Positions 9,115-53,989 of a stretch of 64,000 nt of DNA are shown here, one piece after another; within the stretch, counting starts at the first letter, position 1, and each line of letters begins with the position of its first letter. Made by a program: the position numbers and the translations under genes. Below the pieces are notes generated by a model. That model was given only the letters and a program-made list of their open reading frames with translations. It had not been told where the DNA came from and did not search any database. Origin of the DNA: Gammaproteobacteria bacterium (GTDB lineage Bacteria; Pseudomonadota; Gammaproteobacteria; Pseudomonadales; JADFDG01); the NCBI GenBank assembly GCA_018262975.1, contig JADFDG010000001.1, positions 163,372 through 227,371 of the forward strand, read 5' to 3'.

Positions 9115-9116
9115 GG

Positions 9117-37415: not shown

Positions 37416-38569
37416 TCCTCCACTCCGAATCCCAGCGCCGCGAGCAGCTGCAAGGTTGCCCGCGGCGTTTCTTTTTGCGCGTCATCCGCAACGCCATGCA
37501 CCCGGTAGGCGGAGAATTCGCGGCGCTCGGCGTAATGACGGCGCAAGCGGTCGAACGCCAGCGCCGTCTCGCCGGCATCACCGCTGACCACGGCACGCAG
37601 GCGGGTATCGTCGCCACGCACGTCGCAGCAGGTGGCCAGCAGGCTTGCCAGCGAGCCGGGCCAGGCCACCTCGCGCGGGGCGTCGCCGGCCCGTGCGCGG
37701 ATATCCGCCAGGCTGACGCGCGGAGCGATTCCCAGTGCGCTGCACGCCGCGCGGTAAACCTGCTCGGTGCCACGCCACTTGCCCTCCACCGAGTAACCGG
37801 CAATGTGCGGCGTGCCGAGCCAGCAGCGCGACAACAGTGCCGGCGGCACCGCCGGTTCATCTTCCCAGACATCAAGGACGGCGCGGCGTGACGGCTCGCG
37901 GGCCAGCAGTGTGTCCAACGCCGCGTTGTCCACCACCGGTCCGCGCGCGGTGTTGACCAGCAGTTGCCAGCGACCTGCACGCAGGCGCGCCTCGTCGAGC
38001 AGGTGCCAGGTAGGCGCGTCACCGCCGCGCGTCAGCGGCACGTGCAGGGTCAGGATGTCGGCGCGCGCCAGCAGCGTGTCGAGGTCCAGCAACGTCGCGC
38101 CGGCCGGCAATGCATCGCGCGGCAGCAGCGGGTCACAGACGACCACCTGCAGGCCGAGCGCCTGCGCGCGCGGCACCACTGCCCGGCCGACATTGCCGCA
38201 GCCGATCACGCCCAGGCACTGCCCGGCCAGTTCACGTCCGCTGCGCGCGGCATGCAGTGCCAGCACGGTGCACACGTACTCGGCCACCGCGACGGCATTG
38301 CAACCCGGCGCGGCGGCAAACGGTATGCCACGCGCGGCCAGCCAGCCGGTATCGACGTGGTCGGTGCCGATGGTGGCGGTGCCGACGAAGCGCGGCGCTG
38401 CCCGCGCGAGCAGTGCGGCGTCCACGCGCGTCACCGAGCGCACCAGCAACAGGTCGGCATCGGCGACGTCCACCGCTGTCATGGCGCGGCCCGGCAGGCG
38501 GCGGATCTCCCCCAGCCCGGAAAAGAATTCATCCAGCAGCGGCATGTTCTCGTCGGCAACGATCAGCAT
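37412..38569 (-). CDS. pdxB: 4-phosphoerythronate dehydrogenase
   Basis: MLIVADENMPLLDEFF..., the GVIGCGNVG NAD motif and a PdxB-specific C-terminal dimerisation region. ATG at 38569 is preceded by AGGAG. Confidence 0.9.
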   Translation of the reverse strand: MLIVADENMPLLDEFFSGLGEIRRLPGRAMTAVDVADADLLLVRSVTRVDAALLARAAPRFVGTATIGTDHVDTGWLAARGIPFAAAPGCNAVAVAEYVCTVLALHAARSGRELAGQCLGVIGCGNVGRAVVPRAQALGLQVVVCDPLLPRDALPAGATLLDLDTLLARADILTLHVPLTRGGDAPTWHLLDEARLRAGRWQLLVNTARGPVVDNAALDTLLAREPSRRAVLDVWEDEPAVPPALLSRCWLGTPHIAGYSVEGKWRGTEQVYRAACSALGIAPRVSLADIRARAGDAPREVAWPGSLASLLATCCDVRGDDTRLRAVVSGDAGETALAFDRLRRHYAERREFSAYRVHGVADDAQKETPRATLQLLAALGFGVED

Positions 38570-38574
38570 CTCGT

Positions 38575-39510
38575 TCACTCCTGTTGCAGCATCGCGGCAC
38601 GCAGCGCACGGGCACTGCCGGCCGGCAGGCCGAGCGAAGCGACCGCTTCGTCGACCTGCGCCGCCGGTGCGGGCCGGAAGCGCAGCGACGACACCCGCGG
38701 CAAGCCGGTGGCCCGGCGCGACAAGGTCACCAGGCGCAGGTTCAGGCGCACGCGCGGCGCATGGTCCGCCAGCAGGTCCGCCAGCCGTGGGGCACCGCGC
38801 AGAGGCAGGCCGGCCACCCGCTGCGGCTGCGCCAGCAACTCCTCCACGTGCCGGCAATGTCCGAGCAGGGCCAGCGCGGTACGCGGACCGATGCCGGGCA
38901 CACCCGGCACGTCATCGACCGGGTCGCCGGTGAGCGCCTGCAGTTCCGGCAGGCGCTCCGGGTGGATGCCCAGCCAGCTCGCCACGTCATCGCGGTCCAG
39001 CAGGCGATCGCGGGCCGCCTGCCACAGAAGGTCGTGCGGGCCGGCCAGCGCCTGCGCCAGGTCCTTGTCCTCGCCGGCCAGCACGCTGAAACCGCCCGCC
39101 GCCGCAACCCGCGCGGCCAGCGTTGCCAGCAAGTCATCGGCCTCGAACTCGCGACTGGCCATCGCGCGCAATCCGAGGCGCTCCACGAGCAGCCGGCAGG
39201 CCTGCATCTGCCAGGCGAGGTCCTCGTCGGGCAACACCCGGCTGGCCTTGTAGCCGGGATCGAGGCGGTGGCGGAACCCGCTGAACAGGGACTCGTCAAA
39301 CGCTATGGCGACCGCAGCGGGACGGGCCTCGGCGAGCAGGCGCGCCAGCGTGCGGGCAAAGCCCACCACGGCGTTCAGCGGACGGCCTCGCCGGTCGGCA
39401 AAGACGTCGGGCACGCCGAACCAGGCCCGGAACAGGTAAGCCGAGGCATCGACGAGCAGCACACCGCCAGCGGGCGGTCGGGGACGGGAGGGTCTGGTCA
39501 CGCCCGGCAT
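38575..39510 (-). CDS. xni: 5'-3' exonuclease / flap endonuclease (Xni/ExoIX-like)
   Basis: LLVDASAYLFRAWF, EFEADDLLATLA and the H3TH GVPGIGPRTA. ATG at 39510; the track ORF starts 16 codons earlier. Confidence 0.82.
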   Translation of the reverse strand: MPGVTRPSRPRPPAGGVLLVDASAYLFRAWFGVPDVFADRRGRPLNAVVGFARTLARLLAEARPAAVAIAFDESLFSGFRHRLDPGYKASRVLPDEDLAWQMQACRLLVERLGLRAMASREFEADDLLATLAARVAAAGGFSVLAGEDKDLAQALAGPHDLLWQAARDRLLDRDDVASWLGIHPERLPELQALTGDPVDDVPGVPGIGPRTALALLGHCRHVEELLAQPQRVAGLPLRGAPRLADLLADHAPRVRLNLRLVTLSRRATGLPRVSSLRFRPAPAAQVDEAVASLGLPAGSARALRAAMLQQE

Positions 39511-39738
39511 TGTATCGGTGGCCGTGCTGTGCGTGGGTCGACACTCCTGACAATTCATGGTGTTGCAATGGAAAGGCTATGTATCTTGCTAAGGAATTCT
39601 GGCTATACTCGGGCGCCTCCTTCTCAGCGGAAGGGGTGGCAATACCCGGTGCAATGCGCGACCGGGACCGTCTGTTTTTTTATGAAAATCAGTCGGTTGC
39701 ACCTAAAAAGAATCCGTACAGACGGGACAAGAAAAATA

Positions 39739-40254
39739 ATGGCCACTTTTGTCCGCATCCTGTTTACCGCCGTTCTGGTGACCCTTGCCGCCACGGGCGC
39801 GCAGGCAGCCGAACAGGCCAGCCGCGACCTGCAGGCACTGAAGCAGAACGTCCTCGACCTCAACCGCGAGCTGACCACCCTCGAGCAGCAATTGCTGTAC
39901 CCGAGCACCCAGGTCGCCATGTTCCTGTCGATCGACGTCGGCACCCCGATCCGCCTGGTCGACATCAACCTCGCCATCGACAACAAGAACGTCGGTTACC
40001 ACTTCTATTCCGACCAGGAATTCCAGGCCCTGACCAAGGGCGGCATCCACCGCCTCTACACCGGCAACCTGTCCAGCGGCGAACACACGCTGCGCGCGAC
40101 CATCACCGGCTACGACCCGCAGGGCAAGGACTACCAGCGCACCACCGCCTACAAGTTCGTCAAGGGCGCCGGCCGCAAGATGATCGAACTGAAGGTGGTC
40201 GACGACGTCGAGACCCGCCAGCACAAGTTCGAATTCAAGGAGTGGAGCGAGTAA
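39739..40254 (+). CDS. Secreted 171-aa protein, first gene of the motor/TPR cluster
   Basis: Signal peptide MATFVRILFTAVLVTLAATGAQA|AEQ, a short coiled coil (LQALKQNVLDLNRELTTLEQQLL), then a beta-rich domain. ATG at 39739 in the frame of track ORF 38110..40254. Confidence 0.7.
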   Translation: MATFVRILFTAVLVTLAATGAQAAEQASRDLQALKQNVLDLNRELTTLEQQLLYPSTQVAMFLSIDVGTPIRLVDINLAIDNKNVGYHFYSDQEFQALTKGGIHRLYTGNLSSGEHTLRATITGYDPQGKDYQRTTAYKFVKGAGRKMIELKVVDDVETRQHKFEFKEWSE

Positions 40255-40300
40255 CTCGCCCGTAGCCCCGCCAGCAACCCGCACAGGCACGGTCTCGCGC

Positions 40301-42223
40301 ATGTCGATACGCCGCCGGAAATTCACGCTGCCCGCCGTGGCCGCCCTGGTAGCCGCCGTCGCCTGCAGTGCGGCCATTGGCGCCCCGGCCTCCAAGCGCA
40401 GCTTCGTGCCCGACGATTACGTCGAGCCCCTCGATCCGCCTGCCGTACTGTTCGGCGAGGTGATGTACGAGTACTACAACAACCGCAACCTGCCGGCGAT
40501 CACCCACCTGCTGATCGCCCGCCAGCAGGGCCTGCTGTCCGAGCGCGACGACTACTCGGAAATGCTGCTCGGCGACCTGTACACCAACTTCGGCCTGGTC
40601 GACCGCGCGCAGGCGATCTTCTCGCGCCTGGTCACCCGCGACATCCTCGCCAAGACCCGCAACGAGACCTGGTTCCACACTGCCGAGCTGCAGTACAACC
40701 AGGGCAAGTACGACGAGGCCGCGCGCATCCTCGAGAACAAGATCGAGAACCTGTCGCCGGCCATCGAGAAGGAGCGGCTGGTGCTGCTCGGCAACATCTA
40801 CATCCTGCGCGGCGAGTACCAGCGCGCGGCCGACCTGCTCTCCTCCGTGAAGGCCGATGACGTGGTCGGCGCCTATGCGCTGTACAACGCCGGCGTCGCC
40901 TTCGTCCGCTCCGGCGAGATCGAGCGTGGCATCCCGCTGCTCAAGCGCGTGCGCGACCTGCCGCCGGGTGACGAGGAAACCAACGCCCTCAAGGACCGCG
41001 CGGCACTGGCCGTCGGTTTCACCTGGCTGCAGAAGAACAACCACGACCTGGCGCGCGAATCCCTGCTGACCATCCGCATGGACGGCCCGTTCACCAACCA
41101 GGCGATGCTCGGCCTGGGCTACGCGAACTTCCAGCGCGGCGACTACAAGAAGGCCCTGCCGCTGTGGCTGGAATTGCTGCAGCGCAACACCTCCGACACC
41201 ACCGTGCAGGAAGCGCTGATGCTGGCGCCGCGGGCCTACGAGGAACTCGGCGACCTGCCGCGCGCCCTGTTCGGCTACCGCTACGCTGCCGACACCCTGC
41301 GCGGCGAACTGAAGAAGGTCGAACGCACCATCGTGCGCATCCGCGAGAGCGACTGGATCGACTCGCTGAGCCCCGAGACGGCGAAGGACTCCGCGATCCT
41401 CACCGACCCGCTGGCGCCGGTGACCGGCTACACGCCGGCCAACATCCCGGAAGCGCCCTACCTGTATGCGCTGTTCGCCTCGAACTCGTTCAGCGAGGAC
41501 TACAAGGTCTACCTGGAGCTGAAGCGCATCGAGAAGTTGCTGGACTTCTGGCAGGCACAGTTGCCCATCTACCAGTCCACGCTCGCCCAGCACCGCGTCC
41601 AGCTGGCCACGCTCAAGCCGCGCCTCGACGACACCATCAGCCGCCGCAAGCGCGACGTGGAAGCACTGCGCGCGCAGGTCGCGCCGCTCAAGGCGCGCAT
41701 CGAGAACGCCATCCGCAAGGGCGATCTCGAACAGACCGCGACCCTGCAGCAACTGGCGCAACTGGACGTCGCGCGCGCCATCGAGGCCAGGCTCGGCAAC
41801 AGCACCGGCGCCCAGGCCGAACGCCTGCGGCGGGTCAAGGGACTGGTGATCTGGGACATCGCCGCCAGCGCCACCGCCCAGCAGCAGCAGGCAGTCAAGG
41901 ACATCGAGATCGTGCGCAACGACATCGAGATGGCTGCGTTGCACGTCGAATCGCTGGAGACCCTCCGCACGGACATCCTGCGGCGCATGGGTCCGGAATA
42001 TGACCAGCGCATCGCCGCTGCCGGCGAGCGCCTGCGCGCAATGAAGGATGAAATCACCCAGCGCCTGAAGGCACAGACCGTGGCCCTGCAGAACCAGGCG
42101 CTCGTGGTACTGGCTGAAAACCGCCGCAACCTGGGCGCGCAGCTCGCCGAGACGCACCTGTCCATCGCCCGCCTGCAGGACACCTCGGTCAGCGAGGCCA
42201 TCGAGAAGAGGAAGCGCCAGTGA
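40301..42223 (+). CDS. Exported TPR + long coiled-coil protein (640 aa)
   Basis: N-terminal signal sequence, at least 7 TPR-like repeats in the first ~330 aa, and a heptad-rich, Gln/Arg/Leu/Ala-rich C-terminal ~260 aa. Confidence 0.8.
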   Translation: MSIRRRKFTLPAVAALVAAVACSAAIGAPASKRSFVPDDYVEPLDPPAVLFGEVMYEYYNNRNLPAITHLLIARQQGLLSERDDYSEMLLGDLYTNFGLVDRAQAIFSRLVTRDILAKTRNETWFHTAELQYNQGKYDEAARILENKIENLSPAIEKERLVLLGNIYILRGEYQRAADLLSSVKADDVVGAYALYNAGVAFVRSGEIERGIPLLKRVRDLPPGDEETNALKDRAALAVGFTWLQKNNHDLARESLLTIRMDGPFTNQAMLGLGYANFQRGDYKKALPLWLELLQRNTSDTTVQEALMLAPRAYEELGDLPRALFGYRYAADTLRGELKKVERTIVRIRESDWIDSLSPETAKDSAILTDPLAPVTGYTPANIPEAPYLYALFASNSFSEDYKVYLELKRIEKLLDFWQAQLPIYQSTLAQHRVQLATLKPRLDDTISRRKRDVEALRAQVAPLKARIENAIRKGDLEQTATLQQLAQLDVARAIEARLGNSTGAQAERLRRVKGLVIWDIAASATAQQQQAVKDIEIVRNDIEMAALHVESLETLRTDILRRMGPEYDQRIAAAGERLRAMKDEITQRLKAQTVALQNQALVVLAENRRNLGAQLAETHLSIARLQDTSVSEAIEKRKRQ

Positions 42224-45200
42224 CGTTTGCTGCCCGCCATCGCCTGCCGTTCCGGCTGACCCCGCTGGCCCTTGCCGCACTGCTGGCAGCCGGTTGCGGC
42301 ACCACCGGAAGCACACCAACGGGCACGGCCGCCACGCAGTCGGCACAGAGCCGTTATGCATCGCAGACACTGGCCGACCTCGAGAGCGTCGAGGTGGAAG
42401 TCCAGCAAGGCAGCATCGAGGAATCCGCGTCCATCGAAGGTGCGCTGGAGAGCTACAAGCAGGCCGTGCAGTTGTTCAACGACCCGGAAAAGCGCGTCGA
42501 GTCACTGCGCCGCATGGCCGACCTTGCCATGGCCGCATCCACCGAGAAGGAAGGTGAAGCCCCGGTTTCGCTGGAAGAAAAGCCGGTGGTGCCGGCGCAG
42601 CTTTCCGAGTCCGAGGAAGTCAAGCTCGACCGCGACATCGACGCCATGCTGTTCAAGAGCTTCATGGAAGGCGCCACCAACGCCAAGTCGCAGGAAGAGA
42701 TGTACCGCATGCTCGACCTCGCCGGTGGCATCGCCCCGGAACTCGAGGGCACCGAGCTGGCGGCCAACTATGACACCGCGGTCATCCTCTACCAGTCGGT
42801 GATCAAGAACACCAAGGATTCGAAGGAAAAAGCCGAGGCCTATTACCTGCTGGCCAAGGCCTATGACATCGGCGGCAAGCACGAGGAGTCCGTCGCCACC
42901 CTCAAGGAACTCGGCCGCCTTTACCCGGACAGCACCTTCTACCTCGAGGCGCAGTTCCGCCTGGGCGAGAGCTACTTCAGCGAGGGTGAGTACGACCTCG
43001 CCACCGCCGCCTACTCCGAGGTCATCCAGGCGGGCGCGACGACCGCATTCTTCGAGCAGTCCATCTACAAGCGCGGCTGGAGCCAGTACAAGGTCTCCGA
43101 GTACGAGAAGGCGCTGGTCGACTTTTTCAGGTTGATTGACCTGGTGTCTGCCCAGCCGGCCCAGGGCAAGGACGCGGACCGCAACGCCCGCCTGCTCGAC
43201 GACACCTTCCGCGTCGCCAGCATGTCGTTCAACAACCTCGACGGCGCGAAGTCGGTGAAGGCCTGGTTCGCCCGCAACGGCCACAAGCCGTACGAGAACC
43301 GCGTGTACCGCGCGCTGGGCGACATCTACGTCAAGCAGGAACGCTACGCGGACGCCGCCGAGACCTACGAGGCGTTCGTCACGCTGTACCCGGATGACGA
43401 CCTGGCGCCGGAATTTTCCTCCAGCGCGATCAAGGCGCTGCAGGACGGCGGCTTCCCGACCCAGGTACTGCCGGCCAAGGAACGCTTCGTGAAGGCCTAT
43501 GGCCTCGACAGCGCGTACTGGAAGAAGCATGCAAAGCAGCGCCAGGAATACCTGCCGCTGCTCAAGTCGCACCTGCTCGACCTGGCACGCCACTACCACG
43601 CCACCGCGCAGAAGTCCGGCGACAGCGCCGGCTTCCTGGTGGCCGCGGGCTGGTACGAGCAGTTGCTGCGCACCGACCCGGCTGATGCCGGCGCGGCCAC
43701 CGTCAACCAGCTGTACGCCGAGGCGCTGTTCTCCGGCAAGGAATTCGCGCGCGCGGTGCGTGAATTCGAACGCACGGCCTACGAATACGCCGGCTACGAC
43801 AAGGCCTCCGAATCGGCCTACTTCGGCCTGGTGGCCTACCAGGCGTGGAGCGACAACCTCGAGAAGGACCAGGCGCGCGCCGCCGAACTGCAGCAACTGC
43901 TCGGCCGCAAGATCGACGCCGGCCTGAAGTTCGCGCGCACCTTCCCGTCGCACGAAAAGACCCCGAAAGTGCTGCAGAGCATCACCGAGGACCAGCTGGC
44001 ACGGAAGGATGTGCCCGGCGCGGTCGCCACCGCGGGTATGCTGGTGTCGCTCAACCCGCCGGCATCCATCGACCTGCAGAAGTACGGCTGGCAGACCATC
44101 GCCAACGGCGAATTCGACCTCGGCCGCCACAAGGTCGCGGAGTTTGCCTACGGCAAGGTGCTGGGCTTCCAGGACCTGACGCCGGCCGAGCGCAAGACCT
44201 ACAACGAGCGACTGGCCGCCAGCATCTACAAGCAGGGCGAGAAACTCATCGCCGAGGGCAAGGAGCTGGAAGGTGCGCAGGAATTCCTGCGCGTGGGCAC
44301 CGTGGTGCCGGACGCCGAGGTGCGCGCCAACGCCGAGTTCGATGCCGCCACCATCTTCCTGAAGAAGGAGCAGTACACGGCTGCCATCCCGGTGCTCGAG
44401 CAGTTCCGCACGCGCTGGCCGAAGAACACCCTGGCCGACACCATCCCCGACAAGCTGGCGCTCGCCTACGAGAAGACCGGCAACTGGGCCGGCGCCGCGC
44501 GCGAGATGGAAACCATCCACGACGTCAACCTGAAGGCGCAGCCGGAACTGGCCCGCGTGGCCTTGTGGCAGGCCGCCGAGCTCACCGGGAAAGCCGGCAA
44601 CGAGGATGGCGAGCTGCGCCTGTACGCGAAGTACGTGGCCGAGAACCCGGCACCGCTCGAAGCGCGCATGGAAGCCCAGTACCGCTTGCTGAAGATCCAC
44701 GAAAAGCGTGGCGACCTGAAGGCACGCGACACCATGCTGGCGGCACTGTCCGCGGGTGCGCGCGGCGCCGGCGGCGATGCCACGCCGCGCACCAACTACC
44801 TGGGCGCATTCGCATCGTTCACGCTGGCCGAGCCCACGTTCCTGCGCTTCACCGAGTACAAGTTGCGTGCGCCGCTGAAGACGTCGCTGGCCGAGAAGCG
44901 CCGCCTGATGCAGTCGGCGCTCGACGCTTACTCCACCACCGCGAAGCTGGGCGTCGCCGAGTACACGTCGGCAGCCCAGTTCCGCACCGCCGAGGTCTAC
45001 CGCATCCTTGCCGCCGACCTGATGTCGTCGGAGCGACCCAAGGGCCTCGACGAACTTGAACTCGAACAGTACGACCTGCTGCTCGAGGAACAGGCCCTGC
45101 CCTTCGAGGACAAGGCGATCGAGCTGTACACGATCAACGCCAACCTCGTGAAGCAGGACGTCTACGACGAGTGGGTCAGGAAGAGCATCAAGGCGCTGGC

Positions 45201-45267
45201 GGTCCTGCAACCGGGTCGCTACGGCAAGAAGGAACAGGCGGAAGACTATGTCGATGTCATTTACTGA
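42220..45267 (+). CDS. Large TPR lipoprotein (1015 aa)
   Basis: Lipobox LLAAGC. TPR / YbgF-like repeats run throughout. The GTG start overlaps the upstream stop (GTGA). Confidence 0.82.
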   Translation: MTFAARHRLPFRLTPLALAALLAAGCGTTGSTPTGTAATQSAQSRYASQTLADLESVEVEVQQGSIEESASIEGALESYKQAVQLFNDPEKRVESLRRMADLAMAASTEKEGEAPVSLEEKPVVPAQLSESEEVKLDRDIDAMLFKSFMEGATNAKSQEEMYRMLDLAGGIAPELEGTELAANYDTAVILYQSVIKNTKDSKEKAEAYYLLAKAYDIGGKHEESVATLKELGRLYPDSTFYLEAQFRLGESYFSEGEYDLATAAYSEVIQAGATTAFFEQSIYKRGWSQYKVSEYEKALVDFFRLIDLVSAQPAQGKDADRNARLLDDTFRVASMSFNNLDGAKSVKAWFARNGHKPYENRVYRALGDIYVKQERYADAAETYEAFVTLYPDDDLAPEFSSSAIKALQDGGFPTQVLPAKERFVKAYGLDSAYWKKHAKQRQEYLPLLKSHLLDLARHYHATAQKSGDSAGFLVAAGWYEQLLRTDPADAGAATVNQLYAEALFSGKEFARAVREFERTAYEYAGYDKASESAYFGLVAYQAWSDNLEKDQARAAELQQLLGRKIDAGLKFARTFPSHEKTPKVLQSITEDQLARKDVPGAVATAGMLVSLNPPASIDLQKYGWQTIANGEFDLGRHKVAEFAYGKVLGFQDLTPAERKTYNERLAASIYKQGEKLIAEGKELEGAQEFLRVGTVVPDAEVRANAEFDAATIFLKKEQYTAAIPVLEQFRTRWPKNTLADTIPDKLALAYEKTGNWAGAAREMETIHDVNLKAQPELARVALWQAAELTGKAGNEDGELRLYAKYVAENPAPLEARMEAQYRLLKIHEKRGDLKARDTMLAALSAGARGAGGDATPRTNYLGAFASFTLAEPTFLRFTEYKLRAPLKTSLAEKRRLMQSALDAYSTTAKLGVAEYTSAAQFRTAEVYRILAADLMSSERPKGLDELELEQYDLLLEEQALPFEDKAIELYTINANLVKQDVYDEWVRKSIKALAVLQPGRYGKKEQAEDYVDVIY

Positions 45268-46078
45268 CCGCGCTCCGCGCCTGCTGATCGCCGCGACGCT
45301 GGCCGCGGCGTTGGCGGCCTGCAGCAGTGCGCCGAAGCAACAGGGTGGCGACACCGCCGGCGTCGACAACGTGAACGTGATCAAGCCCGTGCGCGCCCAG
45401 GCCGCCGCGCCCGCCGCGGTTGCCAGCGACACCGCCCACGTGACCACCGTGACCGCCAGTCCGCAGGCGCAGGCCGCCGCGCAGCAGGCGGCACCCGAGT
45501 ACTTCGCGGCCATGCAGCTGTTGCAGGCCGGCAAGCTCGACGAGGCACAGAAAGCGTTCGCTGCGCTGGCGGTGAAATTCCCGAGCCTGTCCGGCCCGGT
45601 GGTCAACCAGGCGCTGATCGCGCTGCGCAACGAGCGCTGGGACGACGCGCTGGCACTGGCCGACCGCGCGCTCAAGGTCAATGCGCGCAACCCGTTCGCC
45701 TGGAACATGCGCGGCATGGCACTGCGCGAGCAAGGCAAGTTCGCCGACGCCCGCAAGTCCTATGAGAGCGCGCTGGCCATCGACCCCAATTACGCCAAGG
45801 CACACTTCAACCTCGGCGTGCTGGCCGACCTGTACCTGCAGGACCTGCCGCTGGCACTGGCGCACTACGAGAAGTACCAGTCGCTGCAGCGCAAGCCCGA
45901 CCAGGCCGTAGGCAACTGGATTGCCGACCTGCGCAACCGCCTGGGGCTGCCCGCCCCGGCAGCTCCCGCAGCTCCGGCAGCACCTGCACCGGCAGCAGCG
46001 CCGGCCGGCGGCGAATCCGCGCCGGCGGCGGGCGACCCCGAAACCGGCACCGATACCATCCCGGCCCAGGCAGGGTGA
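45248..46078 (+). CDS. TPR lipoprotein (276 aa) with Pro/Ala-rich C-terminus
   Basis: Lipobox LAAC, 3-4 TPRs (NPFAWNMRGMALREQGKFADARKSYESALAIDPNY...) and a PAPAAPAAPAAPAP tail. The start overlaps the upstream gene by 20 nt. Confidence 0.8.
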   Translation: MSMSFTDRAPRLLIAATLAAALAACSSAPKQQGGDTAGVDNVNVIKPVRAQAAAPAAVASDTAHVTTVTASPQAQAAAQQAAPEYFAAMQLLQAGKLDEAQKAFAALAVKFPSLSGPVVNQALIALRNERWDDALALADRALKVNARNPFAWNMRGMALREQGKFADARKSYESALAIDPNYAKAHFNLGVLADLYLQDLPLALAHYEKYQSLQRKPDQAVGNWIADLRNRLGLPAPAAPAAPAAPAPAAAPAGGESAPAAGDPETGTDTIPAQAG

Positions 46079-46083
46079 ACGAC

Positions 46084-46395
46084 ATGAACAGACTCGCACG
46101 CATGGCCACCGTCCTCGCCGCCCTCCTCGCCGTCCCGGCGTGGGCAGCCGACCCGCAGCCCGCCGCCAAGCCGGGCAGCAACGGCAAGGCAGACGCGCTC
46201 TCCACCAACGTCATCGGCTCCCAGGAAGCACCCACGGTGCTCAACGTCGTGCCGTGGAAGGACAAGGAAGTGAAACTGGAGAAGAAATCTCCGACCACCT
46301 CCATTCTCAACCAGGTCCTGCAGCCACTGGATCGTGACGTACTGCGCCGCGAGGTGCAGTACTTCCGCAGCCTGCAGGAAAACAAGACCAACTGA
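46084..46395 (+). CDS. Small secreted protein (103 aa)
   Basis: Signal peptide MNRLARMATVLAALLAVPAWA|ADP. An alternative GTG at 46075 overlaps the upstream stop (GTGA). Confidence 0.65.
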   Translation: MNRLARMATVLAALLAVPAWAADPQPAAKPGSNGKADALSTNVIGSQEAPTVLNVVPWKDKEVKLEKKSPTTSILNQVLQPLDRDVLRREVQYFRSLQENKTN

Positions 46396-46482
46396 CAAAC
46401 CCCGGCGCGTCCACCGCGCCTCGCTCCACCCGCCAACACCACAACCACAAACTGACATTCGATTCACATACAGGAGATACCC

Positions 46483-47160
46483 ATGGCAACTGCAGCCGAC
46501 CCCGGTTTCATGATGAGCAGCGTCCGCTTCTTCCAGGATGGCGGCCCCTGGATGTGGCCCATCCTCGTGGTATTCCTGCTCGGCATTGCCCTGGTCGTCG
46601 AACGTTTCATTTACCTGCAGATGGTGACCGGCAAGAACAGCCGCGTGTGGGGTGAGATCTACCCGCTGCTTGCCAAGGGCCAGTTCAAGCAGGTCATGGA
46701 AATTGCCAAGGGCAACGACACCTTCATTTCCGGCATCATCGGTGCCGGCCTGACCCGCGCCACCATTACCCGCCGCCACGAGGATATCGGCCTGGCGATG
46801 GAGGAGTCGCTGATGGAGGTCATGCCGCGACTCGAGCAGCGCACCCCTTACATCGCCACGCTGGCCAACATCGCCACCCTGCTTGGCCTGCTCGGCACCA
46901 TCATGGGCCTGATCGATGCGTTTACCGCCATCGCCAGTGCCGACCCGGCACAGAAAGCAGCCATCCTGTCGTCGTCGATTTCGGTCGCGATGAACACCAC
47001 GGCGTTCGGCCTGATTGCCGCCATCCCGCTGATGCTGGCCTTCACCTACCTGCAGTCGAAGACGGCGAAAGTCGTCGAGAGCATGGAGATGGCCTCCGTC
47101 AAACTGCTGAACATCTACCGCCAGCTGTCCGCTGCCTCCGAGAAGAACCAGGGTGACTGA
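46483..47160 (+). CDS. MotA/TolQ/ExbB-family proton channel
   Basis: Three TM segments and the conserved LLGLLGTIMGLI...TTAFGLIAAIPLMLAFTYL core. AGGAG lies 6 nt upstream of the ATG. Confidence 0.9.
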   Translation: MATAADPGFMMSSVRFFQDGGPWMWPILVVFLLGIALVVERFIYLQMVTGKNSRVWGEIYPLLAKGQFKQVMEIAKGNDTFISGIIGAGLTRATITRRHEDIGLAMEESLMEVMPRLEQRTPYIATLANIATLLGLLGTIMGLIDAFTAIASADPAQKAAILSSSISVAMNTTAFGLIAAIPLMLAFTYLQSKTAKVVESMEMASVKLLNIYRQLSAASEKNQGD

Positions 47161-47219
47161 CCGGCGGGCCTGCCCAGGCTCGCCTTTCTACAGTGCCCGG
47201 ATGATCCGGAGGACCGAAC

Positions 47220-47762
47220 ATGAGTTCACGCAAGAAACCGCGTGTAACCGACGTCGAGCTGAACATCACGACCTTCATGAACCTGATGGTCGTCCTGATT
47301 CCGTTCCTGCTGCTCGACGCGGTATTCACGCAGATGTCGATATTGCAGCTGACGCTGCCCTCTTCGGCCGAGGCACCGCCTTCGCCGGAGGAGGACCGCA
47401 AGCCGTTCTCGCTGGAAGTGCTGATCTACAAGAACCGCTATGAGCTGGTGGACCGCAAGTCCGAATCCGTGCTCTCGGTGATTCCCGTTGCCGCCGACGG
47501 CAAGCACGATACCGCCAAGCTTCACGAAACGCTGGTGCGCCTGAAGGGCCGCGCCGACGAGTTCGGTGAGCCGGTACGCGACATTGCCATCCTCTGCGAG
47601 AAGGACACGCCCTACGAGATCCTCATCATGACGATGGATACCGTGCGCGTGACCGATACCATGGTGAACGGCACGTCGATCAAGAAGGAGCTGTTCCCGG
47701 ACATCTCCATCGGCACGGCACCGGCCGACCAGTCGGGTGTGGCACCGGGAGGTGCGGCATGA
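47220..47762 (+). CDS. ExbD/TolR-family protein 1 (Asn at the conserved TM Asp position)
   Basis: Single N-terminal TM (ELNITTFMNLMVVLIPFLLL) and an ExbD-like periplasmic domain. GGAGG RBS. Confidence 0.85.
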   Translation: MSSRKKPRVTDVELNITTFMNLMVVLIPFLLLDAVFTQMSILQLTLPSSAEAPPSPEEDRKPFSLEVLIYKNRYELVDRKSESVLSVIPVAADGKHDTAKLHETLVRLKGRADEFGEPVRDIAILCEKDTPYEILIMTMDTVRVTDTMVNGTSIKKELFPDISIGTAPADQSGVAPGGAA

Positions 47763-48289
47763 GCCTGCAGAAGCCTACTGCCAAGCAGCGGCGCATGCAG
47801 CGCCGCGCCAAGCACCTGGCACCGACGACGTTGAGCCTGACGTCCCTGATGGACATCTTCACGATCCTGCTGTTCTTCCTGCTGGTGAGCGTTTCGACGT
47901 CGCAGAAAATGCCCGACGAGCGCTACATCCTGCTGCCGAAATCCAGCGCCGAGGAGTTGCCCAAGGAGACGCTCACGGTCGAGGTCAGCGGCAACACGAT
48001 CATCGTGCAGGGCCAGCTGATTGCCGAAACCACGCAGGTCGCCGCCCAGGAAGGCGTATTGATCGCCAAGCTCAAGGAAGAACTGGACTACCAGGCCGCC
48101 AAGTCGGCAGCGCCGCTCAATGAGGCCGGCGTTCCGGAGCGGGAAGTCACGATCCTCATGGACAGCAAGGTTCCCTATGCCGTCCTCGACAAGATCATGA
48201 AGACCTGCATGGTGACCGAGTACAGCAAGATCTCGTTCGCGGTGATGCAGGACAAGAAGAAGCCGGCCACCGGCGGGGAGGGCTCCTGA
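47759..48289 (+). CDS. ExbD/TolR-family protein 2 (conserved TM Asp present)
   Basis: TM segment LSLTSLMDIFTILLFFLLV with Asp32. ATGA overlap with the upstream gene; GGGAGG RBS. Confidence 0.85.
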   Translation: MSLQKPTAKQRRMQRRAKHLAPTTLSLTSLMDIFTILLFFLLVSVSTSQKMPDERYILLPKSSAEELPKETLTVEVSGNTIIVQGQLIAETTQVAAQEGVLIAKLKEELDYQAAKSAAPLNEAGVPEREVTILMDSKVPYAVLDKIMKTCMVTEYSKISFAVMQDKKKPATGGEGS

Positions 48290-49254
48290 TGAGCAGCCCA
48301 CGTCCCGCCATGCCCTCGCGCGGCATTGCCTTTGTTTCCGGCTACCTGCCCTGGGATACGGTCGGTTCCGAGGAAAAACGTGCGCGCTGGCTCCTGTTGG
48401 CCGCCCTGTTGCTCGCGTTCGTGCTGCTCGTGGTGCTGCAGAGCATTACCCTGCCGCCGGTCGACCGCGCGCAGGCCGAGAAGATGCCCGAACGGCTCGC
48501 CAAGCTGGTGATGGAGAAGAAGAAGGAACCGCCGCCGCCGCCGCCCAAGGAAGAAGTGGTGAAGGAAGAGGAAAAGCCCAAGGAAGAGAAGCCGAAGGAG
48601 GAAAAGCCGGTCGAGGAGAAGGTGCAGAAGGCCCGTGAAAAGGCCAGCAAGGCACTGGCCGAGGCCAAGGAAGAACTCGCGGCCATGCAGGACCTCGCCG
48701 CGGCATTCGACTTCGGTGCAGACCAGCCGCTGTCCAAGGCCGGCGCAGCCAGTCCCTCGGAAGGCGCGCTGTCGCGCGACCTGATCACCAGCCGCACCGG
48801 CAAGGGTTCGGGTGGCGTGAACATCGGCACCGCGTCCAGCGGTGGCGGTGGCGCCGGCGTGGCCGGTGGCGGCAAGCTCGGCGGTGCGCAGGTTGCCAAG
48901 GTGGATTCCAACATCACCGAGGGCGGCATCGGCGCGACGCGCAAGAGCGCCAGCGGCAAGCTGGAGCGTACCGAGGAAGAGATCCGCCGCGTGATGGACC
49001 GCAACAACGGTGCCTTGCAGGCGATCTACCAGCGTGCGCTGCGCAGCAACCCGACGCTCAAGGGCGCCATCGTCCTGCGCCTGGTGATCGCGCCGGACGG
49101 CTCGGTGACCTCGGCTGACCTGGTTTCCAGCGAACTGGGCGACGCGGAGACCGAGAAGAAGCTGCTCACCCGCATCAAGGCCATCAACTTCGGCGCCATC
49201 GAGGGCGTGGCCGTGTGGGATGACAAGTACACGCTCAACTTCTTCCCGAGCTGA
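48289..49254 (+). CDS. TonB-like energy transducer with AgmX/PglI-type C-terminal domain (321 aa)
   Basis: N-terminal TM (WLLLAALLLAFVLLVVL), a Pro/Glu/Lys-rich linker (KKKEPPPPPPKEEVVKEEEKPKEEKPKEEKPVEEK), a Gly-rich region, and a TonB_C-like C-terminus (ALRSNPTLKGAIVLRLVIAPDGSV...). TGATG overlap with the upstream gene. Confidence 0.82.
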   Translation: MSSPRPAMPSRGIAFVSGYLPWDTVGSEEKRARWLLLAALLLAFVLLVVLQSITLPPVDRAQAEKMPERLAKLVMEKKKEPPPPPPKEEVVKEEEKPKEEKPKEEKPVEEKVQKAREKASKALAEAKEELAAMQDLAAAFDFGADQPLSKAGAASPSEGALSRDLITSRTGKGSGGVNIGTASSGGGGAGVAGGGKLGGAQVAKVDSNITEGGIGATRKSASGKLERTEEEIRRVMDRNNGALQAIYQRALRSNPTLKGAIVLRLVIAPDGSVTSADLVSSELGDAETEKKLLTRIKAINFGAIEGVAVWDDKYTLNFFPS

Positions 49255-49278
49255 CGTGTAGTGCGTGTGTAACACCGA

Positions 49279-49308
49279 CAAGGGGCGCTGCGGCGCCCCT
49301 TGTTTTTT
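49279..49308 (+). terminator. Rho-independent terminator ending the motor operon
   Basis: CAAGGGGCGC, loop TGCG, GCGCCCCTTG, followed by TTTTTT. It lies 25 nt after the stop at 49254. Confidence 0.85.
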
Positions 49309-49348
49309 GCGGTATCTTGTCGTCGTTCAGAGACGGCCGGAGTCCGCC

Positions 49349-49867
49349 ATGCGCCACACCACCCTGTTTTCCCGTGCCTGCCTGCTTGCCGCGGTCGTGG
49401 GCCTCACCGCCTGTATTCCGCCACCGGCGGACATCGGCGTCGACTACTCCGGCCCCATCTACCGCAAGCCCGGCGCCGATGCACCGCGCACGCAGTCCTC
49501 GTCACTGCCGGCACAACCGGCCGGCAGCGAGTGCGCGAAACTCGAGGAAACGCCGACCCGCAAGCGCAGCGCCTGTGGCGTGCGCGAGATCATGACGCGC
49601 TACAACGGCGGCCTGCAGATGCTTTACCAGCGCCGACTGGTCGACAACCCGCGCCTGCAGGGACAGGTCGTGTTGCGCCTGAACATCGCCGCCGATGGCA
49701 GCGTGCAGGCCTGCGACATCGCCTCCAGCACCCTCAACGACAGCGAACTCGACCGGCAGATCGCCGCCTACGTGCGCACCATCAACTTCGGGGCGCTCGA
49801 AAACGTACCGGCCTGGGCTGACACCTACACGCTGGAACTGACGCCGCCGGTGGCCGGCAAGCGCTGA
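49349..49867 (+). CDS. Lipoprotein carrying a second AgmX/PglI-type TonB_C-like domain (172 aa)
   Basis: Lipobox GLTAC. The C-terminal ~90 aa align by eye with the C-terminus of the 321-aa protein (LYQRRLVDNPRLQGQVVLRLNIAADGSV...TINFGALE...TYTLEL). ATG at 49349 with GGAG upstream. Confidence 0.75.
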   Translation: MRHTTLFSRACLLAAVVGLTACIPPPADIGVDYSGPIYRKPGADAPRTQSSSLPAQPAGSECAKLEETPTRKRSACGVREIMTRYNGGLQMLYQRRLVDNPRLQGQVVLRLNIAADGSVQACDIASSTLNDSELDRQIAAYVRTINFGALENVPAWADTYTLELTPPVAGKR

Positions 49868-49876: not shown

Positions 49877-50431
49877 TCAGCCGGGCGGCGGCAGGAAGCG
49901 CCCGGCCGGCAATGGCCAGGGCTGGCCATAATGCGCGGCCAGCCGCGCGCCCAGTTGCGCCGCGCGCGGCGGCAGCTGCCCGTCGACGCAGCGCAGCACC
50001 TCGGCATGCACCGCACGCCACAGCGAGCCTTCATCGAGCGGGTCCTCGCAATCGAGGTTATCCATGCTGACGCGAAAGGACTTGCCGCACGCCGCGGTGA
50101 GCACCCATTCCACCGCCTGGGGCCTCGCTTCCACGCGCTCGAACTCCGCTTGCCGGGCGCCACTGCGGCCATCGGGGTCGTACCAGTAACCGTAGTCGAC
50201 CTGCCGGCGCCGTTCGCTGCCGGCCACGCACCAGTGAGCGATCTCGTGCAGCGCACTCTGGAAATAGTCGTGGCGGAACACGATCTCGTTCCAGCCGTGC
50301 TCGTCGGCGGCCGGGACGTAGAGGGGCTCTTCGCCGCCAGCGACCAGCCGCACGCGATGCGATTGCGCAAACGTGGCGGCAAAGATCGCCGCCAGCTCAT
50401 CGGCATCGAAGCGGTCAGCACCCATCGACAT
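49877..50431 (-). CDS. epmC: Elongation factor P hydroxylase
   Basis: Strong resemblance to E. coli YfcM/EpmC as I recall it (HEIAHWCVAG, DYGYWYDPDGR, PQAVEW, MDNLD). ATG at 50431. Confidence 0.85.
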   Translation of the reverse strand: MSMGADRFDADELAAIFAATFAQSHRVRLVAGGEEPLYVPAADEHGWNEIVFRHDYFQSALHEIAHWCVAGSERRRQVDYGYWYDPDGRSGARQAEFERVEARPQAVEWVLTAACGKSFRVSMDNLDCEDPLDEGSLWRAVHAEVLRCVDGQLPPRAAQLGARLAAHYGQPWPLPAGRFLPPPG

Positions 50432-50570
50432 CACCCTGTAGCGGGGGCGCCATGCGCCCACCCGTGTTCCTGTATGATCATCCGCCGCCGTGGTCCGCCG
50501 CCCCGCCGCTGGCAACCGCCAGTCCCGGGGCCGGGATCACCCGAGCCGGCAACGTGGTGCGCACCCTACC

Positions 50571-52013
50571 TTGAGCCTCCCCTCGCCTCAATCCCCGTCC
50601 GCCACCATCCCGCCACCACGCGGTGAACTGCGCGCGTTGCTGGCGCTGGTACTGCCGATCCTCGGCGGCCAGGTGGCGCAGACCGCCAACGGTTTCGTCG
50701 ATACCGTGATGGCCGGCCAGGTCAGCCCGCTGGACCTCGCTGCCGTCGCCGTCGGGGCCAGCATCTGGGTGCCGGTGTTCCTGTTCATGGTCGGCGTGAT
50801 CATCGCCGCCACGCCCATCCTCTCCCAGCACCTCGGCGCCGGCCGCCACCACCACGTGGTGCCTACCGCCTGGCAGGCGCTGTGGCTGGCGCTGGGCGTG
50901 GGCATCGCCGGCCTGCTGGTGACGCGCAATGCGGGCGTGCTGTTCAGCGCGCTGGAGGTGCCGGTGCATTTGCGCCAGCTGACCGGGCGCTACCTGGACG
51001 GCCTGTCCTGGGGCCTGCCCGGCGTCGCGCTGTTCATCGGACTGCGCAGCTACACCGAGTCGCTGTCGCACACCACGCCCGTGCTGGTGATCAGTTTCAT
51101 CGGCCTGTTCGCCAACATCCCGCTCAATTACCTGTTCATCCACGGCGCGACGCTGCCGGCCGGCCTGACGATCCCGGCCATGGGCGGTGCCGGGTGCGGC
51201 GTCGCTACCGCCATCGTGATGTGGCTGATGGCCGGCCTGATGTGGCTTTACGTGCGCAACGCCAGCCACTATCGACGACGTGCACCGGCCGGCACGCGCA
51301 TCGACGGCGGCCCGCACGCCCCGGACGTCCGCGCACTGGCGGCGATGCTCGCCCTGGGCCTGCCGATCGGCCTGGCCATTTTCTTCGAGGTGAGCATCTT
51401 CTCGATCATCGCCGTGTTGCTGGCGACCATGGGTGAACGGGTGGTGGCTGGCCACCAGATCGCCCTGAATTTCGCTTCCCTGACCTTCATGTTGCCGCTG
51501 TCGGTGGCGCTGGGACTCACCGTGCGTACCGGGCTGGCCGCCGGCGCGGGTGACCTGGCCGCGGTGCGCCGCGCGGTACGCACCGGCATGATGCTGTCGA
51601 CGGTGCTGGCCCTGTTCAACCTGTGCGTGTTGCTGCTCGGACGCGAGGCCATCCCCGCGCTGTACACCGATGACCCGGGCGTACGTGCACTGGCGGGTGC
51701 ACTGATCGTCTATGCAGCGATTTTCCAGTTGCCCGACGCGCTGCAGGTGACCGCCAGCGGAGCGCTGCGCGGCTTCCGCGACACGCGCAGCCCGATGTGG
51801 ATCACCCTGCTGGCGTACTGGGGCATCGGCTTGCCGGTGGGATGGGCGCTCGGCTTTGGCACGCTGCTCGGCGTGCCGGTCACCGAACCACTGGGACCGC
51901 AGGGTTTCTGGGTGGGCCTGATCGTGGGCCTGGTGTGCGCCGCGGTGCTGCTCAACCTGCGGCTGGCCGGCTACCTCTCGGGGCGACGGACCTGGCAACG
52001 CGGCAGTGACTGA
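50571..52013 (+). CDS. norM: MATE-family multidrug efflux transporter (NorM-like)
   Basis: 12-TM MatE pattern (LPILGGQVAQTANGFVDTVMAG...ALRGFRDTRSP). The start is uncertain because there is no in-frame ATG near the N-terminus. I chose TTG 50571; the track uses 50490. Confidence 0.8.
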   Translation: MSLPSPQSPSATIPPPRGELRALLALVLPILGGQVAQTANGFVDTVMAGQVSPLDLAAVAVGASIWVPVFLFMVGVIIAATPILSQHLGAGRHHHVVPTAWQALWLALGVGIAGLLVTRNAGVLFSALEVPVHLRQLTGRYLDGLSWGLPGVALFIGLRSYTESLSHTTPVLVISFIGLFANIPLNYLFIHGATLPAGLTIPAMGGAGCGVATAIVMWLMAGLMWLYVRNASHYRRRAPAGTRIDGGPHAPDVRALAAMLALGLPIGLAIFFEVSIFSIIAVLLATMGERVVAGHQIALNFASLTFMLPLSVALGLTVRTGLAAGAGDLAAVRRAVRTGMMLSTVLALFNLCVLLLGREAIPALYTDDPGVRALAGALIVYAAIFQLPDALQVTASGALRGFRDTRSPMWITLLAYWGIGLPVGWALGFGTLLGVPVTEPLGPQGFWVGLIVGLVCAAVLLNLRLAGYLSGRRTWQRGSD

Positions 52014-52057: not shown

Positions 52058-53989
52058 ATGTCGTCTGAAGGGACGCAAGCCATGCGCAGCACGTCGACAC
52101 GTACCACCGGCGCCAATGTCCGTGCCCTGATGGAATTCCTGCAGGCCTGGGCGCCGTTCAGCCAGATGGAAACGGCGCACCTCGCCGCGCTGGTGGAATG
52201 CAGCGAACTGCATTACTTCGCCGACGGCGAGGTGGTCTTGCGCCCGGAAGACGGCCCGGCGCGACGGTTCTGGGTTGTCCGCCAGGGCCGGATACGCGGT
52301 GAACGCAGCGGCAGTGACGGGCGCGCGGAAACCACCTTCGAGATCGCCCGTGGCGAATGCTTCCCGCTGGCGGCGCTGCTGGGCGAGCGCCCCACCCGCA
52401 CCCTGCACCGCGCCGTCGGTGACACCTTCTGCCTGAGCATCGACCGCGCCGATTTCGCTCGCCTGATGACCATGAGCGAGCCGTTCCGGGACTACTGCCT
52501 GCGCGGCGTCAGCAGCCTGCTCGACGAGGTCAACCGCGGCATCCGTCGCCAGGCCCAGCAGGCCGTGGTGGATGACGCCAGCCTCGACCAGCCGCTGACG
52601 CGCTACGCGCAGCGCCGGCCGGTGACCTGCGCACCGGATACGCCGCTGCGCGCTGCCGTGCAGCACATGCACGAAGCCAATGTCGGCTCCATCGTGGTCA
52701 CCGACGAACAGCACAAGCCGCTGGGCATCTTCACGCTGCGCGACCTGCGCGCACAGGTTGCCGCCGCGGTCGCGATGGATGCGCCCATCGCCTCGGTGAT
52801 GAGCCATGACCCGGTCTGCCTGCCGCCGGACGCTACTACCTTCGACGCCTCGCTGCAGATGGCCGCCCGCCACTTCGCACACGTTTGCCTGGTGGATGCC
52901 GGCGGTGCGCTGGCCGGCGTGGTGTCGGAGCGCGACCTCTTCTCGTTGCAGAAAGTCAGCCTCGTGCGCCTCACGCGCACGCTGGGCACCGCACCCGACC
53001 TCGCCACCCTTGCCAGCCTGCGCGAGGACATCCGCCAGCTGGTTGATGCCATGCTGGCGCGAGGCGCCGCGGCCCGCCAGGTGCTGCGCGTGATCACCAC
53101 CCTCAACGACGTCACCGTGAGACGCATCATCGAGCTGCAACGGGCGAAGCAGGATCCCGGCATACGCTTCGCGTGGCTGAGCTTCGGCAGCGAGGCCCGC
53201 CAGGAACAGACCCTGCACACCGACCAGGACAACGCCATCCTTTTCGACCCGCCCGCGGGCATGGGCAACGACGAGGCGCGCCGGCGCCTGCTGCCCTTCG
53301 CGCAGGCAGTCAATGCCGACATGGCGCAGTGCGGATTCGCGCTGTGCAAGGGCAACATCATGGCCGGCAACCCGGAACTGTGCCTGTCGGTGGAAGAATG
53401 GGAAGCGTGGTACCAGCGCTTCATCGAGAGCTGGACGCCGAAGAACCTGATGTATTCGGCAATCTTCCTCGACGGGCGTGCCCTGTGGGGCGATACCGCC
53501 ATGGCCGATGCACTGTTCGCGCGCGTGCGCACGCGCATACGTGCCCACAGCCTGTTCCAGCGCATGATGGCCGGCGCGGCGCTGGAATCGCGGCCACCGC
53601 TGAATTTCTTCCAGGGTTTCGTGTACGCCAAGGGCGGCGAGAAACACACCATCGACCTGAAAGTTCAGGGACTCACGCCATTCGTCGATGTCGCCCGCGT
53701 ATTGTGCTACGCCGAAAACCTGCCGGCGGTGAACACCTTCGAGCGCCTGGAGGCGCTGCGTGATGCGGGACGCCTCGATGCCAACGACGTGAATGCGTGG
53801 CTGGAGGCCTACGGGCTGCTGCACCTGTTGCGCATGCGCCACCACCAGGAGCGCATGGCGAGCGGCCAGCCGCTGGACAACCGGCTGAACCCCGACACCC
53901 TCAACCCGCTGGATGCACGCATCCTGCGCGAATCCTTCCGCCAGGCGCAGCGCCTGCAGCAGTCGCTGGCGCTGGCCTACCAGTTGTGA
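52058..53989 (+). CDS. cNMP-binding + tandem CBS + DUF294 (GlnD-like) nucleotidyltransferase protein
   Basis: N-terminal cyclic-nucleotide-binding fold and a CBS pair (VTCAPDTPLRAAVQHM...IVVTDEQHKPLGIFT). Pol-beta NTase signature FGSEARQEQTLHTDQDNAI, plus a C-terminal DUF294_C-like helical domain. Confidence 0.82.
   Translation: MSSEGTQAMRSTSTRTTGANVRALMEFLQAWAPFSQMETAHLAALVECSELHYFADGEVVLRPEDGPARRFWVVRQGRIRGERSGSDGRAETTFEIARGECFPLAALLGERPTRTLHRAVGDTFCLSIDRADFARLMTMSEPFRDYCLRGVSSLLDEVNRGIRRQAQQAVVDDASLDQPLTRYAQRRPVTCAPDTPLRAAVQHMHEANVGSIVVTDEQHKPLGIFTLRDLRAQVAAAVAMDAPIASVMSHDPVCLPPDATTFDASLQMAARHFAHVCLVDAGGALAGVVSERDLFSLQKVSLVRLTRTLGTAPDLATLASLREDIRQLVDAMLARGAAARQVLRVITTLNDVTVRRIIELQRAKQDPGIRFAWLSFGSEARQEQTLHTDQDNAILFDPPAGMGNDEARRRLLPFAQAVNADMAQCGFALCKGNIMAGNPELCLSVEEWEAWYQRFIESWTPKNLMYSAIFLDGRALWGDTAMADALFARVRTRIRAHSLFQRMMAGAALESRPPLNFFQGFVYAKGGEKHTIDLKVQGLTPFVDVARVLCYAENLPAVNTFERLEALRDAGRLDANDVNAWLEAYGLLHLLRMRHHQERMASGQPLDNRLNPDTLNPLDARILRESFRQAQRLQQSLALAYQL

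Follow-up and report, generated by a model that had tools for sequence, protein, structure and literature searches.

The question raised by this locus is how a proton-driven motor might work when one of its two ExbD/TolR-family subunits has no protonatable residue in its transmembrane (TM) helix. The locus lies in a stretch of 64,000 nucleotides, hereafter the window, from contig JADFDG010000001.1 (positions 163,372 to 227,371; assembly GCA_018262975.1) of a Gammaproteobacteria bacterium. Two adjacent genes on its forward strand encode ExbD/TolR-family subunit 1 (D1, 47220..47762, 180 residues) and subunit 2 (D2, 47759..48289, 176 residues). Current 5:2 models of MotAB, ExbBD and TolQR have two central Asp residues that alternate in proton binding, and the usual dead controls for motors of this class are D-to-N mutants, AglQ D28N of Myxococcus among them. 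D1 has Asn21 in place of the relay Asp and D2 keeps Asp32; the Asn is fixed in the D1 family and is strictly paired with an Asp-bearing neighbor. The pair sits in a ten-gene operon, 39739-49867, that is, by its gene content and order, the gammaproteobacterial Agl/Glt "core complex". Our answer, toward which we lean by a modest degree, is that the motor is a heteromeric AglR5:AglQ(Asn):AglS(Asp) assembly in which one subunit alone carries protons, both the heterodimer and the single-carrier mechanism being inferred.

In D1 the codon AAC at 47280-47282 gives Asn21, in the context TTFMNLMVVLIPF, and in D2 the codon GAC at 47852-47854 gives Asp32, in the context SLMDIFTILLFF. D2 has the longer and more basic N-terminal tail. 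The D1 stop and D2 start share ATGA, D2 and the next gene share one base (TGATG), and there is a GGAGGA upstream of D1. The original prediction, made from the letters of the window, had given Asn21, Asp32 and the ATGA overlap, and its coordinates and codons are all as it had them. Both proteins belong to Pfam ExbD (PF02472), with 42.7 bits for D1 and 56.7 bits for D2 against a gathering cut-off of 25.4. The equivalog models are another matter. D1 fails the ExbD/TolR models TIGR02804, PRK11267 and TIGR02801, scoring 19 to 21 bits at best versus cut-offs of 123 to 216, and D2 reaches 19.3 bits versus 127.3 on the NCBIfam equivalogs for the ExbD of TonB systems and the TolR of Tol-Pal. The AlphaFold2 monomer models both have a single N-terminal TM helix followed by a TolR-type periplasmic alpha/beta domain. 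For D1 the helix spans 16-41 with a mean predicted local distance difference test (pLDDT) value of 84 and the periplasmic domain 65-166 with pLDDT over 90; for D2 the helix spans 27-45 (pLDDT 77) and the domain 72-162. In these models Asn21 and Asp32 are each placed about 5 residues inside the helix. Foldseek of the D1 model finds TolR (5by4) at rank 4 with probability 1.0 and a low TM-score, among mostly generic alpha/beta matches of the ribosomal uS11 kind. D1 also has a C-terminal motif of its own, ELFPxISIGDAP, which is invariant in the family, and extra C-terminal strands in its model.

That Asn21 occupies the relay position was claimed in the original prediction, and 3 methods concur. 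HMMER aligns D1 with Escherichia coli ExbD (PDB 6tyi_Y) by placing ELNITTFMNLMVVL on DINVTPFIDVMLVL, with Asn21 opposite Asp25. MAFFT with ExbD and TolR puts Asn21 in the column of ExbD Asp25 and TolR Asp23, and hhalign of the two family profiles pairs Asn21 of D1 with Asp32 of D2 at a probability of 98%. The protonatable TM Asp known as D25 in ExbD, D23 in TolR, D32 in MotB and D28 in AglQ is accordingly absent from D1 and present in D2. The family alignments contain no other conserved TM acid in D1, none in D2 beyond Asp32, and none in the AglR-like channel protein encoded just upstream. A place to look for a relocated relay, named at the outset, was Asp33 in the downstream LLLDAVF. Its column in 120 close D1 homologs reads N 80, D 26, T 11 and E 3, and is thus not conserved, so Asp33 is no relocated relay residue. 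Another candidate for a shifted charge was Asp145 of the AglR-like protein, in TM2 and six residues after Thr139; that column is Q/N/R/S in the family, and the candidate was dropped.

These alignments already bear on the least demanding explanation, that the Asn is a misalignment, a strain mutation or the mark of a decaying paralog, with some other acid doing the job. This explanation had its opening in Asp33, which the window D1 carries on the same helix, 12 residues further down. The agreement of 3 independent alignment methods speaks against misalignment. At the Asp33 column most family members have Asn or Thr, no alternative conserved acid is found, Asp145 of the AglR-like protein is unconserved, and that protein has no Glu at 168. 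What disposes of strain mutation and decay is the distribution of the residue.

Asn stands at the relay column in 120 of the 120 best D1 homologs, which have 51-98% identity to it. When 1.84 billion cluster representatives were searched exhaustively with HMMER, 150 diverse D1 relatives were returned, 148 of them with a residue at the column. At 50% identity clustering, Asn is found in 145 of these 148 representatives, down to about 35% overall identity, the remainder being 2 Asp and 1 Ser. The original prediction had held open that orthologs might vary freely between Asp and Asn; they do not. The Ser case is P0260, a single 50%-identity cluster whose helix is otherwise of the Asn type (EVNVTAFLSLMVVLVPFLL). 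The codon in 80 genomes is AAC in 55 and AAT in 25, so the amino acid is held while the codon drifts. That the Asn is fixed with both codons in use, replaced by Ser once and by no other substitute, argues for selection of Asn itself as opposed to lost constraint. The surrounding TM motif of the family, ELNITAFMNLMVVLVPFLL, is the best-conserved segment of the protein and near-invariant over about 25 residues. In D2, Asp is found in all 113 homologs and at all 80 loci.

The 80 loci come from a scan of one genome per species with a sequence pattern that contains the Asn; at least 590 genomes matched, and the 80 best loci were analyzed. They are from Alcanivorax, Ketobacter, Agitococcus and other Moraxellaceae, Woeseiaceae, Chromatiales, Kangiellaceae, Pleionea, and a few metagenome-assembled genomes (MAGs) of Burkholderiales. 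The D2 column is independent of the search pattern, and for the fixation of Asn in D1 the unbiased evidence is the 120 close homologs and the 148 cluster representatives. Pairwise identity over the same 80 genomes averages 51% for D1 and 53% for D2. In the TM segment it is 80% for D2 and 86% for D1, the D1 value being inflated by the 9-residue search pattern; the near-invariance of the D1 helix is seen likewise in the unbiased set of cluster representatives. A rate equal to that of D2, together with the near-invariant helix, rules out D1 as a decaying copy. With the Asn fixed across hundreds of species, we regard misalignment, strain-specific mutation and decay with Asp33 as a substitute as refuted, and give them next to no weight.

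The conservation of the helix also bears on whether D1 enters the channel. D1 could stay outside the pentamer pore as a bitopic periplasmic adaptor to peptidoglycan or to the tetratricopeptide repeat (TPR) lipoproteins of the operon, in which case the relay residue would be irrelevant. The confidently folded, TolR-like periplasmic domain of D1 and its family-specific conserved motifs would suit such a role. A mere anchor helix should drift, yet the TM helix is the part of D1 that is most conserved when overall identity is down to about 35%. It also keeps the ExbD/TolR register, with a polar residue at the position of the Asp. Thus we consider the adaptor improbable.

The channel subunit is the AglR homolog at 46483..47160 (forward strand, 225 residues), a MotA/TolQ/ExbB-family protein with 97.8 bits to PF01618 (cut-off 22.9). 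Its scores on the ExbB and TolQ equivalog models are all far below the cut-offs. The original prediction had noted by eye that it has Val where E. coli ExbB has Glu176, and this is confirmed: Val168 falls opposite TolQ Glu173 by HMMER against TolQ and opposite ExbB Glu176 by MAFFT with ExbB and TolQ. Across the 80 loci position 168 is V in 69, T in 8 and I in 1, and never Glu. The ring threonines T139 and T173, which correspond to T148/T181 of ExbB and T145/T178 of TolQ, are kept, being present in 77 to 78 of 79 related proteins. The point of interest was whether the Val goes with the Asn, as the pairing of the two observations had implied. It does not, since Val is also found in 5 of the 6 operons examined from a sister group in which both ExbD-like subunits have Asp, with Glu only in L085. 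The Val is thus a family trait that predates the Asn or is independent of it. L085 is a metagenome contig with a guanine-plus-cytosine (GC) content of 68%, on which the ExbB-like gene at 8417-9118 keeps the Glu (SSSISEAMNCTAFGL) and is followed by two ExbD-like genes at 9149-10236. Glu with Asp/Asp, Val with Asp/Asp, and Val with Asn/Asp are all found in nature. In TM3 of the AglR-like protein, at residues 171-173 (46993-47001, MNTT), Asn171 is invariant, and the Asn/Asp clade has Thr172 directly before the ring Thr173. Compared with LLAT and LIAT of E. coli ExbB and TolQ, this makes the pore lining more polar than that of the Ton and Tol motors.

Much is shared with ExbB-ExbD and TolQ-TolR of E. 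coli, namely the Pfam families, the TM register, the Thr ring of the channel and the TolR-like periplasmic fold, and the operon supplies TonB/TolA-like and YbgF-like TPR partners as well. The Ton and Tol 5:2 motors, however, have a homodimer with two Asp, whereas here there are two diverged paralogs, one of them without the Asp, and the Glu at ExbB 176 and TolQ 173 has no counterpart in the AglR-like protein of the window.

The closer comparison is with the gliding machinery of Myxococcus. Luciano et al. described in 2011 clusters with homologs of GltC, GltD, GltE, GltG, AglR, AglQ and AglS plus one extra gene, whose function in Gammaproteobacteria is unknown (PMC3169522; PMC3858216). Besides those of Gammaproteobacteria, such core clusters are described from Geobacter and from a single betaproteobacterium, and the core complex alone does not drive gliding (PMC3169522). 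Table S3 of that work names hosts in Cellvibrio, Hahella, Marinobacter, Saccharophagus, Shewanella frigidimarina and Teredinibacter, with 2 clusters in Marinobacter aquaeolei, 2 in Saccharophagus degradans and 3 in Teredinibacter turnerae (PMC3169522). Its layout runs MXAN_2541 (~550-690 residues), MXAN_4870 (~950), MXAN_4869 (~160-260), a skipped locus tag, MXAN_6862 (~220), MXAN_6861 (~170-188), MXAN_6860 (~162-185) and MXAN_4867 (~325) (PMC3169522). The window has 640, 1015, 276, 106, 225, 180, 176 and 321 residues in this order, which matches gene for gene, and on that basis D1 is the homolog of AglQ (MXAN_6861) and D2 the homolog of AglS (MXAN_6860). The lengths of the N-terminal tails agree, with the Pfam domain starting at 15 in AglQ and 28 in AglS, and at 11 in D1 and 24 in D2. 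The description of the two genes as ExbD/TolR paralogs therefore stands as to family by Pfam, but not in the sense of a generic ExbBD or TolQR pair, given the gene order of the Agl/Glt core complex and the GltG-type domain of the following gene.

As in Myxococcus, there is one MotA/ExbB-type subunit with two non-identical ExbD/TolR-type subunits and a GltG-type C-terminal domain. The differences are that AglQ and AglS of M. xanthus both have the TM Asp (PMC9389320), whereas the AglQ homolog here has a fixed Asn; that the GltG-like protein here has no forkhead-associated (FHA) domain, unlike Myxococcus GltG; and that the Group A genes of Myxococcales (gltA, B, F, H, I, J and K), needed there for motility, are not found inside the operon.

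The sister group with two Asp residues is reached through the Asp outliers themselves. The two cluster representatives with Asp (P0256 and P0258) lie in operons of the same architecture. A profile search started from them returns 120 of 120 proteins with Asp and the motif ELLLVPMIDIFTVLVTFLLMTAVFS, for example in Steroidobacteraceae, and four further loci of Asp type have the same layout, six in all (L083, L085, L088-L091). These sister operons have the TPR genes, the small protein, the ExbB-like gene, two ExbD-like genes and the TonB-like gene in the familiar layout. In the latter half of its TM helix and in the C-terminal motif AELFPxISIGDAP their position-1 protein matches D1, but unlike D1 it keeps the Asp (motif ELLLVPMIDIFTVLVTFLL). 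At all six loci both ExbD-like subunits have Asp and the canonical Pro at -3.

Relative to the sister group, all three TM partners of the Asn/Asp clade are changed. In D1, the Pro at -3 is Ala, the Asp is Asn, and an invariant Pro is gained at +7 on the same helix face; in D2, the Pro at -3 is Ser; and in the AglR-like protein, Cys172 is Thr, adjoining the ring Thr173. The Pro changes fall in D1 residues 18-28 (47271-47303) and D2 residues 29-32 (47843-47854), where canonical ExbD reads VTPFID and TolR reads IVPLLD. The helix-kink site seems to have shifted from a place below the polar residue to one above it. A neighbor-joining tree of the periplasmic domain sets position-1 proteins, of both Asn and Asp types, apart from position-2 proteins, so that the duplication is older than the split between Asp and Asn. 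Inside position 1 the Asp types nest among long branches of Asn type, and the tree does not resolve polarity. We take Asn as the derived state because the TM motif of the Asp type resembles canonical ExbD and TolR, with the polarity unproven.

Four features of the locus suggest a heteromer: the invariant adjacency of D1 and D2, their translational coupling, their matched rates, and the concerted TM changes. Two results from Myxococcus point the same way. Single mutants of aglR, aglQ and aglS have the same severe sporulation defect (PMC3858216), so that neither AglQ nor AglS stands in for the other, and a published AlphaFold model shows AglQ and AglS as a heterodimer inside the pore of AglR5 (PMC11761067). 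As we picture it, the AglR pentamer would surround one AglQ-like and one AglS-like TM helix in a 5:1:1 complex, and in the Asn/Asp lineage only Asp32 of the AglS-like subunit would bind and release protons. The invariant Asn21 would be permanently neutral and capable of hydrogen bonding, a mimic of a protonated Asp. It would probably lie against the conserved ring of Thr139 and Thr173, keeping the asymmetric dimer in register and taking no turn as proton carrier. A motor with one carboxylate might pass one proton per two sub-steps, in a slower rotary cycle, or might make a reciprocating stroke, two schemes that the sequence cannot separate. Force would reach the TPR lipoproteins at the outer membrane by way of the GltG-like protein. 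A bolder form of this proposal, that there is a large natural clade of 5:2-type motors running on a single carboxylate, with Asn as a permanent "protonated" state and either rotation at one proton per two 36-degree sub-steps or a reciprocating two-state power stroke, we put forward as tentative and on balance doubtful. If it held, the motor superfamily would have no absolute need of an alternating two-Asp cycle, and the Asp/Asp sister operons would serve as a natural control. The obligate heteromer with one protonatable subunit type, which was one of two options in the original prediction, fits what we find; it is not separable here from the other option, a structural or regulatory role of D1.

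The main rival keeps D1 in the pore. D1 and D2 might each form a homodimer and share the AglR-like pentamer, with AglR5:(D2)2 active and AglR5:(D1)2 an inert brake, scaffold or peptidoglycan anchor, the ratio between them regulating output. Homodimers with the D-to-N change are inert yet are known to assemble. The motif ELFPxISIGDAP and the extra C-terminal strands, both specific to D1, could mean a separate periplasmic role. AglQ D28N paralyzes the machinery without removing it (PMC3858216), and Rieu et al. (2022) point out that MotAB-like channels could in theory be made by AglRQ and by AglRS alike, the stoichiometry in vivo being unknown (PMC9389320). On the other side, ATGA coupling and invariant adjacency suggest that the two are made in equimolar amounts, the Asn/Asp clade has changes in all three of its TM partners at once, and an inert complex would not obviously need Asn over any neutral residue. 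The published Myxococcus model also favors the heterodimer (PMC11761067). Hence, we judge the pair of homodimers unlikely.

Several points weigh against the single-carrier heteromer that we lean toward. The D-to-N change inactivates MotB, ExbD and TolR. Myxococcus with AglQ D28N loses proton conductance as well as gliding and sporulation (Wartel et al. 2013, PMC3858216). Taken with those other nulls, this means that a working single-Asp motor would go against the current alternating two-Asp model. The heterodimer is drawn from co-occurrence and from the Myxococcus AlphaFold model, and the orthology of D1 with AglQ and of D2 with AglS from Table S3, gene order and the N-terminal tail lengths. 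The 80 loci were picked by a pattern containing the Asn, with their D1 column and D1 TM identity biased by it, and the concerted TM changes count as one clade-level event and not as independent replicates. We know of no phenotype for this operon in any gammaproteobacterium.

The operon with its paired paralogs is already known, and the heterodimer idea is already published for Myxococcus. In a limited search of the open-access literature, a natural Asn at the relay position turned up in no report, whether for AglQ homologs or for any ExbD/TolR paralog. The D-to-N change that is null in Myxococcus AglQ is here the wild-type, selected state of an AglQ homolog in a widespread operon, the search pattern with the Asn having matched at least 590 species genomes. 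If both subunits form one complex, this would be a natural half-site motor, which asks how many carboxylates a 5:2 motor needs, and the Asp/Asp sister operons would be its built-in controls. Residue 21 of D1 and residue 32 of D2 offer a concrete handle on the function of the gammaproteobacterial core complex.

The remaining genes of the operon are all on the forward strand. The first, at 39739..40254, encodes a secreted protein of about 171 residues with the signal peptide MATFVRILFTAVLVTLAATGAQA. The listed open reading frame (ORF) is 38110-40254 (714 residues), an over-extension from high GC of which only residues ~540-714 are conserved. The gene is 46 nucleotides upstream of the GltC-like gene, and a matching ORF adjoins the GltC-like gene in 59 related loci. 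Its product has no Pfam family, and it is neither one of the seven core genes of Luciano et al. nor their extra gene. The 640-residue protein at 40301..42223 is taken as GltC (MXAN_2541)-like by its TPR Pfam matches, position, size and synteny. It is followed after a 4-nucleotide overlap by a TPR lipoprotein of 1015 residues at 42220..45267, GltD/AgmU (MXAN_4870)-like by synteny, with TPR matches and sub-threshold YbgF/BamD-like matches. The TPR lipoprotein of 276 residues at 45248..46078 is GltE/AglT (MXAN_4869)-like by TPR matches and synteny, and scores 30.7 bits on the GltE model NF033758 against a cut-off of 225. The small secreted protein at 46075..46395 (106 residues) is the "additional gene" of the core complex, which has no Myxococcus homolog; in 71 loci it is conserved with the GltE-like gene on one side and the AglR-like gene on the other, and scans with the Pfam and NCBIfam models place it in no family.

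Downstream of D2, and conserved directly after it in related loci, is the GltG homolog at 48289..49254, a TonB/TolA-like transducer of 321 residues with a TM helix, a Pro/Lys/Glu-rich spacer and an AgmX/PglI-type C-terminal domain. That domain scores 63.4 bits on NF033768 (cut-off 40), and the GltG model aligns over 375-633 of its 650 positions. The full-length GltG equivalog gives 53.8 bits versus a cut-off of 650, a low score because the FHA-containing N-terminal half is absent. The last gene, at 49349..49867, encodes a probable lipoprotein (lipobox LTAC) with a second AgmX/PglI/TonB-type C-terminal domain, at 53.9 bits on NF033768 (cut-off 40). Its listed ORF starts at 49265, 10 nucleotides past the GltG-like gene, and the start at 49349 is read from the sequence. 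In other loci it is matched best by C-terminal domains of the GltG-like gene and not by a separate gene, and by this comparison it looks like a lineage-specific partial duplication.

The operon is flanked by housekeeping genes, namely an NAD kinase at 35924-37102 (reverse strand) on one side and, on the other, the EF-P hydroxylase EpmC at 49877-50515 (reverse strand), a MatE efflux protein at 50490-52013 (forward strand) and a cNMP-binding/CBS/DUF294 nucleotidyltransferase at 52058-53989 (forward strand). The operon has a GC content of 65% and the window one of 67.5%, and nothing around the operon hints at a mobile element or island. Where the contigs reach, the gene order common to the 80 loci is secreted, TPR1, TPR2, TPR3, small, ExbB-like, D1, D2 and TonB-like. 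L006-L009 share with the window the placement of the GltC-like and secreted genes at the head of the operon. A minority order, for example in L010-L017 from Ketobacter and "Pseudomonadales" MAG relatives, has these two genes downstream of the GltG-like gene, a rearrangement in an otherwise rigid cluster.

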